DNA of 54,393 nt from a virus (taxonomy: Duplodnaviria; Caudoviricetes): positions 1-54,393 of IMG/VR virus record IMGVR_UViG_3300015050_000873; one strand, 5' to 3'. Shown here piece after piece: positions 33,271-35,095 of the stretch. How positions within the stretch are numbered: the first letter of the stretch is position 1; each line of letters opens with the position of its first letter. The translations under genes were made by a program, and so were the position numbers. The notes under the pieces were generated by a model. That model saw only the letters and a program-made list of their open reading frames with translations. It was not told where the DNA came from and made no database searches.

Positions 33271-33471
33271 ATGGGCGGACTATTTGGCGGCGGCGGAAGC
33301 CCTGCACCTGCACCAGCGCCTACCGTGCTGGCAACCCCTGAACCGGCACCCATGCCGACGATTGACGACGCTGCTGTCAAGGCTGCGAAGAAGAAATCGC
33401 TGATGTCTGCCCAGCAGCGCGGCGGCCGCGCGTCCACGGTACTGACCGACGGCGAAGACAAACTGGGATAA
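33271..33471 (+). CDS. Small virion protein (MGGLFGGG...RASTVLT)
   Basis: AAGGAG SD; typical pre-portal small gene of podoviruses. Confidence 0.75.
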   Translation: MGGLFGGGGSPAPAPAPTVLATPEPAPMPTIDDAAVKAAKKKSLMSAQQRGGRASTVLTDGEDKLG

Positions 33472-33475
33472 ATCC

Positions 33476-35095
33476 AGGAACACAGACCTCAAACAGCTGG
33501 TTGAACGCGGCGAGTACCTTCTCGGGAAGAAAACCGAGATCAACACGCTGTGGCAGACCATCGCCGACAACTTCTACCCCGAGCGGGCGACGTTCACGGT
33601 TACGCGCTCGCTGGGCGCGGAGTTTGCCGACCACCTCATGACCAGCCAGCCGCTGATGATGCGGCGCGAGCTGGGCAACCAGTTCTCAGGTCTTCTTCGC
33701 CCCACCAACAAGGAATGGTTCGACATCATCGTCGAGGGGACCAGCAAGAACATCGAGGCCCGGCGCTGGCTGGCCTGGGCCACGGGTGTGCAAAAGCGCG
33801 CCATGTACGACCTGGACGCCAGCTTCGTGCGCGCCACCAAGGAGGGCGACCACGACTTTGCCGCCTTCGGCCAGTGCGCCATCAGCGTGGAACTCAACCC
33901 AGACCGCGACGGCCTGCTGTACCGCTGCTGGCACCTGCGCGACATGGCGTGGTGTGAGGGTGCGAACCGCCAGGTCAACACCGTCATTCGCCGCTGGAAG
34001 CCCACGGCCTACGACCTGAAAAACACCTTCCCGAAGTCAGTTCACCAGAAGGTGCACGAGGCCTGCAACAAGAACCCGTACCAGGAGTTCAACGTCCGGC
34101 ACATCGTCGTCCCGGCCGACCAGTACACCGGTGAGCGCAAGTGGAAGACGAAATACGTGTCGGTGTTCATCGACATCGACAACATGCACTGCCTGGAAGA
34201 AGTCGGCACGCACACGATGCCCTACGTGATTCCACGCTGGCAGACCGTCAGCGACAGCCAGTATTCCTACAGCCCGGCTACCGTCTGCGCGTTGCCTGAC
34301 GCCCGCCTGCTGCAGGCCATGACCCTGACCCTGCTCGAGGCCGGCGAGAAAGCCGTGAACCCACCCATGGTCGGCGTGCAATCGGCACTGCGCTCGGACC
34401 TGCAGATATTCGCCGGCGGCTTTACCGCAGTGGATGCAGCTTACGACGAGCGCCTGGGCGAGGTCCTGCGGCCGCTGACCCAGGACAAGAGCGGCCTGCC
34501 GTTCGGCATCGAGGTGCGCGACGACATCATCAAGTCCCTGACCGAGGCTTTCTATCTCAACAAACTGAACCTGCCACCGGTGGACGGCGCAAAGATGACC
34601 GCCTACGAGGTCAGCAAGCGCATCGAGGAATACATCCGCCAGGTCCTGCCCCTGTTCGAGCCTCTGGAGACTGACTACAACGGCGCGGTGTGCGAGCGCA
34701 CCTTCGACATCCTGCTGCGCAACGGTGCATTCGGCAACCCAGACAGCCTGCCCGAGGCCTTGAGCGGCAAGAAGATCGACTTCCAGTTCCAGAGCCCGCT
34801 GCATGATGCCGAGGACCGCCAGAAGGCCAGCATCTTCGTGGAAGCGCAGGGCCTTATCGCCCAGGCCGCCCAGATGGATCCGTCGGTCGGCGCACTGATG
34901 AAGGTGCCGGACGCTGCCCGCGAAGCCCTGCTCGGGCTGGGCCTGAACCCGGACCACATCCGCACAGAGGACGAAATGTCCGAAGTGCAGGCTGCCGAGG
35001 CCGAAAAGCAGAACCAGCAGCAGTTGCTCAACACGCTGGGCCAGGGCGCCGAGATCATGAAAACCGCTGGTGAAGCCAGCAAGGCGATGCAATGA
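33476..35095 (+). CDS. Portal (head-tail connector); proposed AGG start (539 aa)
   Basis: WQTIADNFYPER N-terminal motif lies upstream of first ATG 33638; PYVIPRW, YSYSP, EKAVNPP, MTAYEV, FQSPL. Confidence 0.9.
   Translation, partial: RNTDLKQLVERGEYLLGKKTEINTLWQTIADNFYPERATFTVTRSLGAEFADHLMTSQPLMMRRELGNQFSGLLRPTNKEWFDIIVEGTSKNIEARRWLAWATGVQKRAMYDLDASFVRATKEGDHDFAAFGQCAISVELNPDRDGLLYRCWHLRDMAWCEGANRQVNTVIRRWKPTAYDLKNTFPKSVHQKVHEACNKNPYQEFNVRHIVVPADQYTGERKWKTKYVSVFIDIDNMHCLEEVGTHTMPYVIPRWQTVSDSQYSYSPATVCALPDARLLQAMTLTLLEAGEKAVNPPMVGVQSALRSDLQIFAGGFTAVDAAYDERLGEVLRPLTQDKSGLPFGIEVRDDIIKSLTEAFYLNKLNLPPVDGAKMTAYEVSKRIEEYIRQVLPLFEPLETDYNGAVCERTFDILLRNGAFGNPDSLPEALSGKKIDFQFQSPLHDAEDRQKASIFVEAQGLIAQAAQMDPSVGALMKVPDAAREALLGLGLNPDHIRTEDEMSEVQAAEAEKQNQQQLLNTLGQGAEIMKTAGEASKAMQ

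Follow-up and report, generated by a model that had tools for sequence, protein, structure and literature searches.

In a survey of all 64 codons, those outside the near-cognates initiated translation at 0.01-1% of the AUG level (10.1101/063800), and AGG starts read by the normal machinery are suppressed by IF3 (PMC6868393). The closest described system is an engineered one, in which an Escherichia coli initiator transfer RNA (tRNA) with the anticodon CCU raised initiation at AGG 35- to 402-fold, the largest increase of 12 pairs; in the six strains described in the accessible part of that report AGG/CCU was the best of the 12 pairs, and in one strain it exceeded AUG (10.64898/2026.04.16.719103). 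Our literature search gave engineered systems only, and it yielded no published case of a natural phage initiator tRNA for a non-AUG codon. Here we analyzed a phage genome, IMG/VR record IMGVR_UViG_3300015050_000873 (54,393 bp; its whole length is called the window below), in which the portal, large terminase, major capsid, and tail-fibre genes carry AGG in place of ATG and the only tRNA gene has the anticodon CCU. On the basis of these features, we consider it very likely that a phage-encoded initiator-type tRNA makes AGG a start codon in this phage.

AGG in place of ATG, and the CCU tRNA

The window, a complete virus record, carries direct terminal repeats and has a GC content of 62%. The elements concerned, including one open reading frame (ORF) between terminase and portal and two Shine-Dalgarno (SD) sequences, are as follows.

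28967..29043, + strand: tRNA with anticodon CCU, which reads AGG; called by ARAGORN, the genome's only tRNA gene
31717..33270, + strand: large terminase gene (terL), read from AGG 31717
33271..33471, + strand: conserved 66-residue ORF between terminase and portal, with stop TAA 33469-33471
33476..35095, + strand: portal (head-tail connector) gene, 539 codons from AGG 33476
33476..33637, + strand: 'start-less' stretch of 54 portal codons, a homologous and conserved N-terminus under purifying selection
36617..37474, + strand: major capsid gene including its SD sequence, with AGG 36629
52195..53412, + strand: tail-fibre gene including its SD sequence, with AGG 52207

The portal gene follows terL (31717-33270) and the small ORF and precedes genes at 35092 and 35412 and the capsid gene at 36629; this position between the large terminase and the scaffold and capsid genes is as expected for a T7/BPP-1-type portal. 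Its frame is closed by TGA 33443-33445 and contains no in-frame ATG, GTG, or TTG from 33446 to ATG 33638, which is codon 55 counting from AGG 33476. The AGG codon (33476-33478) is separated by four bases, ATCC (33472-33475), from the stop of the 66-residue ORF and by seven bases from GGGA (33465-33468). The original prediction had described the portal gene in these terms, with 54 codons lacking a canonical start, a closing TGA at 33443, and an AGG four nucleotides past the upstream stop and seven past GGGA, and each of its coordinates was verified in the sequence. Because the AGG lies only four nucleotides past TAA, the two genes are probably translationally coupled. In relatives, the junction of the 66-residue ORF with the portal start is always tight, and its C-terminus, ...ST[IV]LT..DKLG followed by the stop (...LTD..DKLG in a second form of the pattern), is kept across dozens of them; the ORF itself gave a weak match to phrog_831.

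Three further genes show the same exchange of ATG for AGG. In the capsid gene, the SD sequence AAGGAG (36617-36622) is followed by the spacer CCAAAA and AGG 36629, with the first canonical start, GTG 36749, 40 codons downstream, and a relative (L002) carries the identical TTTAGGAGCCAAAA and then ATG. In all 49 distinct related capsid contexts, a canonical start lies no farther than four codons away, and in 44 it coincides with the AGG-aligned codon (43 ATG, 1 GTG); capsid homologues of 88-89% identity begin MASTAFQ. In the tail-fibre gene, AAGGAG (52195-52200) and the spacer AAGAAA precede AGG 52207; a canonical start was present within four codons in five of five relatives, as ATG exactly at the AGG-aligned codon in four, and ATG 52240 of the window aligns to an internal leucine of the relatives, which makes it an internal codon. 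In terL, the junction reads TGA TCC AGG AAC with AGG at 31717, and the first canonical start, ATG 31813, comes 32 codons later. The six other members of the terL cluster at 90% identity are 516-517 residues long, and the three that were fetched begin MTDLAE, MTNLAE, and MNALAE with methionine at the AGG position. Of 37 distinct related contexts, 33 offer a canonical start no more than four codons away. The 10-mer ATCCAGGAAC contains both the terL AGG (31713-31722) and the portal AGG (33472-33481); it has exactly two matches in the window against 0.14 expected, a number reached in one of 100 shuffles. Among the AGGAG sites of the plus strand, those of the capsid and fibre genes are the only ones followed six bases on by AGG plus a long ORF, and the remaining late genes that were read have canonical starts. 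A search of IMG/VR with the capsid SD-AGG pattern returned nothing else. The tail-fibre gene is preceded by a gene of 2483 codons (44744-52195), whose translation holds an HExxH-like motif, AHELMHKH.

The tRNA at 28967-29043 matched the Rfam tRNA model with 55.5 bits in cmscan, which flagged its 1:72 pair as non-standard, and C1 and A72 are unpaired in the cloverleaf of minimum free energy. Its acceptor end consists of the mismatch C1xA72, the pairs G2:C71 and C3:G70, A73, and an encoded CCA (CGCAGAU...AUCUGCA-A-CCA). A C1xA72 mismatch is the mark of bacterial initiators, and G2:C71 and C3:G70 together with 1:72 are formylase determinants (PMC5389676); the window tRNA thus carries the 1:72 mismatch and both of these pairs. 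Two other initiator features are absent, namely the three consecutive G:C pairs, in place of which the anticodon stem has U29:A41, G30:C40, and C31:G39 (CUUGC/GCAAG), and the anticodon CAU, which is replaced by CCU. In E. coli, G30:C40 alone suffices for initiator function, at a fitness cost (PMC5389676).

An elongator tRNA-Arg(CCU) would be expected to look different: the window tRNA has no Watson-Crick 1:72 pair, no U33, and no A20, all of which (the pair as G1:C72) are present in the E. coli prophage tRNA-Arg with which it was compared. A20 is an identity element for arginyl-tRNA synthetase. In addition, internal AGG accounts for only 11 of 421 arginine codons and 11 of all 7409 codons in 16 late genes, so codon supplementation by a CCU tRNA would not be needed. 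No tRNA of any kind was found in five ATG-type relatives, three of which are complete genomes. Of all full-length matches in 50,697 phage records, the best (79%) was to an initiator-type tRNA with the anticodon CAU from Erythrobacter phage R6L, and the nearest of 80 initiator-type tRNAs from IMG/VR were likewise CAU types (75-79%), one of them with an identical D arm. In R6L (vB_EliS_R6L, KY006853; L120, positions 1501-1577 of the locus), this tRNA is unannotated and is flanked by the terminase gene and by a gene noted as portal protein.

The tRNA gene lies between two hairpins and the late gene block, which starts near 29200. Directly upstream of the tRNA (28858-28964) are a strong terminator-like hairpin of 12 pairs plus a T run (28858-28888) and another hairpin, which is rich in GC and has a T run as well. 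No sigma-70-like site was found near the tRNA in a promoter scan that recovered only one of the two terminator-like hairpins. About 150 non-coding bases separate the tRNA from the first late ORF (29044-29290). The exact pattern of the anticodon arm gave a single chance match without a tRNA (L119), and the tRNA pattern had no match in genome contigs and only one in IMG/VR (L123). The latter was discarded as an ordinary elongator: it is a tRNA-Arg(CCU) with A1:U72 and A20, from an unrelated provirus without a portal relative.

Anticodons and start codons in other phages

We scanned IMG/VR for the acceptor pattern of the window tRNA and examined 80 of the 91 resulting stretches as loci. Their anticodons were CAU in 64, CAG in 6, CCU in 5, CUU in 4, and GAC in 1, giving 16 loci other than CAU. 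A codon was counted as a start if it had a strong SD sequence 5-10 bases ahead and opened an ORF of at least 90 codons, with no canonical start in frame upstream and none within five codons downstream. By this count, the CCU loci had eight AGG and no CTG or AAG starts, the CAG loci six CTG, no AGG, and one AAG, and the CUU loci four AAG and no AGG or CTG. The table of anticodons and start codons is therefore diagonal, with the start matching the anticodon in each group. In 15 low-GC CAU control loci (128 kb), none of the three codons was counted; the high-GC control loci were noisy, with AGG making up 14 of 833.

The genes concerned are of similar kinds. Fourteen ORFs with non-canonical starts were located, and family scans covered 10 of them, the others being a 70-residue ORF of L129, a 995-residue ORF of L193, and a portal copy and a 147-residue ORF of L152. 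The scanned ORFs encode portal, major head, minor head, and tail-completion proteins in the AGG group, large terminase, small terminase, and major head in the CTG group, and portal and major head in the AAG group, and several of the profile alignments begin at residues 2-6. Four unrelated phages of 28-30% GC (L129, L157, L201, and L182) have an initiator-type tRNA(CCU) with the stem au/GC/ug and AGG starts on portal, major head, minor head, and tail-completion genes and one further gene. Six contigs (L135, L142, L163, L170, L186, and L193) have in common one CAG initiator-type tRNA sequence, and here SD-spaced CTG codons open the genes for large terminase, small terminase, and major head protein as well as the 995-codon ORF. 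In L141, L152, L173, and L208, CUU initiator-type tRNAs occur together with portal and major head genes that have SD-spaced AAG starts, and one 147-codon ORF in these loci is without any canonical start. The locus with the anticodon GAC (L207), which has an odd anticodon loop and an initiator-type acceptor stem, showed no GTC starts in 13 kb.

The window shows the same kind of pairing: the AGG codons of four of its genes match the anticodon of its tRNA, and the tRNA-less relatives keep ATG. The window tRNA is just 66-71% identical to the low-GC CCU tRNAs, and we therefore take it to be of independent origin. It is likely, in our judgment, that this soil phage of a high-GC host independently evolved a private AGG start and that unrelated phages reached CCU/AGG, CAG/CTG, and CUU/AAG pairs, which would amount to a general and undescribed layer of initiation control.

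Several points weigh against an initiator tRNA that makes AGG a start codon in the window. In E. coli, the flanking pairs of the anticodon stem add fitness, and a cg/GC/cg mutant grew poorly (PMC5389676). The window stem is ua/GC/cg, with only the middle G:C pair kept, the near-universal U33 is replaced by C33, and A20 by C20. Positions 7-65 are 78-80% identical to an E. coli prophage tRNA-Arg(UCU), with an Arg-like anticodon arm, and the tRNA could be an arginine tRNA with an odd end. If arginine were the first residue, it could be destabilising under the N-degron rule. The terL and portal AGGs lack a strong SD sequence, and a loose SD scan of the window at its 62% GC did not single out AGG (6+6 sites, with many codons higher). 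Within the portal cluster, AGG was read directly in only one contig besides the window (X2), the tRNA was looked at in the window only, and for this phage the whole case is built from sequence.

Some of these points suit a rival explanation, in which the host's ordinary initiator tRNA uses AGG weakly, maybe by termination-reinitiation, and keeps the portal protein low, with the CCU tRNA serving as an elongator for rare arginine codons. The portal AGG does lie four nucleotides past an upstream stop, the tRNA body does resemble tRNA-Arg(UCU) over positions 7-65, and a virion requires few copies of the portal protein. We nevertheless regard this explanation as unlikely. The major capsid protein, which is needed most abundantly, has its AGG behind a perfect SD sequence, and codons of the AGG class yield 0.01-1% of AUG in E. 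coli (10.1101/063800), too little for capsid protein. Moreover, the four replaced starts are all AGG and never a better near-cognate, AGG is scarce within the late genes (11 of 421 arginine codons), the C1xA72 end is initiator-like, and the tRNA-less relatives keep ATG.

The portal N-terminus and its inheritance

The portal protein matched the Pfam family PF12236 (Head-tail_con) over nearly its full length with 215.7 bits (cut-off 27), residues 17-503 of the frame opened at 33446 aligning with profile positions 3-487 of 489; profile position 3 corresponds to portal codon 7 counting from AGG. The alignment to PHROG 332 begins at residue 12 of the same frame, which is codon 2 from AGG, and PHROG 449 was also matched. 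The sole solved relative found by sequence, the PDB portal 8ck0_A (E=2.6e-33), aligns from residue 22 of the AGG-started protein. These alignments indicate that the 54 codons upstream of ATG 33638 are true portal sequence. The check proposed in the original prediction, a profile comparison with the head-tail connector family, thus revealed homology upstream of 33638, from position 3 of PF12236, and its expectation that a start at ATG 33638 would truncate the fold was supported, as such a start would cut conserved structure and drop about 33 residues aligned to 8ck0. The motif W..IA....P, on which that expectation had been based, was correct insofar as the extension is portal homology, but its proline is specific to the window: all 12 fetched homologues read FYVER, and the window reads FYPER. 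FYPER reflects a two-base change, from GTC or GTT to CCC at 33578-33580, in the most conserved motif of the N-terminus.

Portal homologues of 81-91% identity and 539 residues (P0003, P0005, P0006, and P0007; also P0128 and P0129) have methionine exactly at the AGG codon and begin MNSDLK, MNNDLK, MNSSLK, or MNTDLK (pattern M-N-[STN]-[DS]-L-K); codons 2-7 (NTDLKQ) are identical in the window and the ATG-type homologues P0007 and P0128. From 98 fetched loci with a portal match, we obtained 59 distinct start contexts reaching the N-terminus, and all 59 had ATG, GTG, or TTG no more than four codons from the AGG-aligned position; AGG at the aligned start codon was found in none of the 59. The portal-based viral and metagenome scans yielded only relatives of up to 69% identity, and megablast against phage records gave no match. 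The proposed start at or near AGG 33476 therefore agrees with the position of methionine in the homologues, with purifying selection on the codons in question, and with the three further AGG genes and the CCU tRNA. As part of the interpretation in which the phage tRNA reads AGG, we believe that AGG 33476 is very probably the real initiation codon of the portal gene.

Alternatively, portal translation might start downstream, be it at ATG 33638 or at a non-canonical codon such as CTG 33497, with the upstream codons conserved for other reasons or their start recently lost. CTG is among the better non-canonical starts, at 1-2% of AUG (10.1101/063800), and several relatives have TTG as codon 8 (X1 and X3; P0124 was called from there). 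Gene callers chose such starts. This alternative is very unlikely, because codons 2-7 match the ATG-type homologues and the Pfam and PHROG profiles align from codons 2-7. The spacer from AGGA to CTG would be 17 nucleotides, and ATG 33638 would remove the residues aligned to 8ck0. Initiation at CTG 33497, which the original prediction had named as the result that would contradict it, is disfavoured because the AGGs of capsid, terL, and fibre and the tRNA would stay unexplained.

The missing ATG is inherited beyond the window. The portal cluster of the window at 90% identity comprises six proteins from six contigs, and all six were called truncated, at 485, 486, 516, 526, 526, and 533 residues, the call of the window itself being 485; the five contigs besides the window measure 29125, 30570, 44913, 9852, and 4782 nucleotides. 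Members of four neighbouring portal clusters are all of 539 residues, except one of 540 and one 263-residue fragment. The gene callers simply took whichever TTG or ATG lay downstream. We also compared Logan contigs of four runs at 33380-33680; these contigs represent relatives of about 86-91% identity, and the share of sequence words present in a run was at most 0.07. The X1 and X3 contigs have the usual TGATG overlap of stop and start at the portal junction. The X2 contig (4782 nucleotides, depth 8.4) has TGA, three bases (C-CC), and AGG AAC, with no canonical start. It is equal in length to the contig encoding P0127, whose gene call begins at the TTG seen in X2 at 33548. The X2 sequence was read from listed differences, in which 20 of 22 counted places appeared, the two others being C>T; in this reconstruction its upstream ORF is in the same frame as the portal and separated from it by TGA only. 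Within the 54 codons, seven synonymous and three replacement changes separate the two AGG forms, window and X2 (binomial P=0.0035 at 25% expected synonymous), and 12 synonymous and two replacement changes separate the window from the ATG-bearing X1. These ratios indicate that purifying selection acts on the 54 codons in a lineage without ATG, and hence that they are translated.

The extent of truncation differed between genes. In a 29125-nucleotide contig, both the portal call (526 residues) and the capsid call (241 residues) were truncated and the terminase was full. In a 44913-nucleotide contig, portal (486 residues) and capsid (249 residues; 78% identical to that of the window) were both truncated. 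A 30570-nucleotide contig had a truncated portal and a full capsid (MPSTAFQ), and a 3443-nucleotide contig is a further candidate for a changed capsid start; contigs with a full portal also have full capsids. Truncated or AGG forms were thus found for the portal in all six cluster members, for the capsid in three or four contigs (the window and the 29125-, 44913-, and 3443-nucleotide contigs), and for the terminase in the window alone among seven cluster members. Because truncation differs in this way between genes across contigs, the change from ATG to AGG looks progressive, with the portal first, the capsid next, and the terminase in the window only.

A sequencing or assembly error, or a decaying and non-viable genome with mutated start codons, would also produce AGG. 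The window does come from a metagenome assembly and has the unusual V-to-P change in a conserved portal motif. However, this explanation is highly improbable given the truncated calls in five further contigs from other data sets, the AGG of X2 in an independent run at depth 8.4, the purifying selection, and the completeness of the genome with its terminal repeats. It would require four independent T-to-G changes, all at start codons, and where the gene after 37519 begins, in AAATGGCA, an ATG in the same local context was read normally. The contig and selection evidence led us to reject systematic base-calling error and a dead gene, and the frame evidence likewise disposed of a fusion of the portal with the upstream 66-residue ORF by frameshifting or stop read-through, which is barely credible: the ORFs of X2 share a frame with TGA alone between them (as reconstructed), but those of the window are offset by one base, end and begin around a TAA, and have no slippery sequence, the ATG-type relatives keep separate genes with overlapping stop and start, and a frame relation that differs between close relatives argues against either form of fusion. 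None of the rival explanations accounts fully for the capsid AGG behind its perfect SD sequence, the choice of AGG in all four genes, the initiator-type end of the only tRNA, and the conservation between contigs.

Proposed mechanism and relation to known systems

We propose that the window tRNA descends from a bacterial or phage initiator tRNA in which the anticodon CCU replaced CAU. Because its C1xA72 end is unpaired and the 2:71 and 3:70 pairs and G30:C40 are kept, it would be handled as an initiator, that is, formylated, passed over by EF-Tu, and taken to the P site by IF2; we infer its charging, formylation, and P-site action from these elements. It would then pair with AGG behind a strong SD sequence in the capsid and tail-fibre genes and with AGG right past the stop of the upstream gene in terminase and portal. 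Translation of terminase, portal, capsid, and fibre would come to depend on the phage's own tRNA, the gene for which sits just upstream of the late gene block. The purpose may be timing, protection against hijackers or recombinants, or escape from a host attack on initiator tRNA.

If this proposal is true, the phage represents a natural, systematic, virus-made exception to the rule of ATG, GTG, or TTG starts in bacteria and phages, and a natural counterpart of engineered orthogonal initiation. It would also represent a new regulatory logic, in which late proteins are made only when the phage tRNA is present. The same would explain why gene callers truncate or lose essential virion genes, here leaving the portal 54, the capsid 40, and the terminase 32 codons short. 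It would become testable how little initiator identity suffices (here only G30:C40, plus C33) and which amino acid starts the proteins, and the gene-by-gene spread among close relatives would offer a rare view of codon reassignment in progress.

Stop-codon recoding by phages, in which phage suppressor tRNAs gate late or lytic genes, is comparable in that a phage tRNA gives a new meaning to a codon found mainly in late structural genes and thereby makes their expression depend on a translation component of the phage itself. In contrast, the window system would give a sense codon a start function via the P site, and elongation and termination would keep the standard code. The elongator tRNA-Arg(CCU/UCU) of phages and prophages shares with the window tRNA an anticodon that reads AGG and, over positions 7-65, anticodon and T arms that are 78-80% alike; it differs from the window tRNA, which has C33 and lacks the 1:72 pair and A20 and whose codon is nearly absent inside the late genes. 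Bacterial tRNA-fMet and the CAU initiator-type tRNAs of phages share with it C1xA72, G2:C71, C3:G70, A73, and the encoded CCA, as well as similar D arm, variable loop, and T arm. Unlike tRNA-fMet, the window tRNA has the anticodon CCU and is missing two of the three G:C pairs of the anticodon stem; with CCU it would be unable to read AUG and is unlikely to be a substrate of methionyl-tRNA synthetase. The engineered E. coli initiator tRNA(CCU) has in common with the proposed system an initiator body, the anticodon CCU, AGG at a normal SD distance, and the use of the host initiation machinery. The window system differs from it in being natural, phage-borne, tied to four essential virion genes, and evolving gene by gene, and its tRNA is no point mutant of a host tRNA, with only G30:C40 kept and with C33 and C20. 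Taken together, we rate the system as new with respect to the published record and the window as a high-GC example of independent origin whose tRNA is more divergent.

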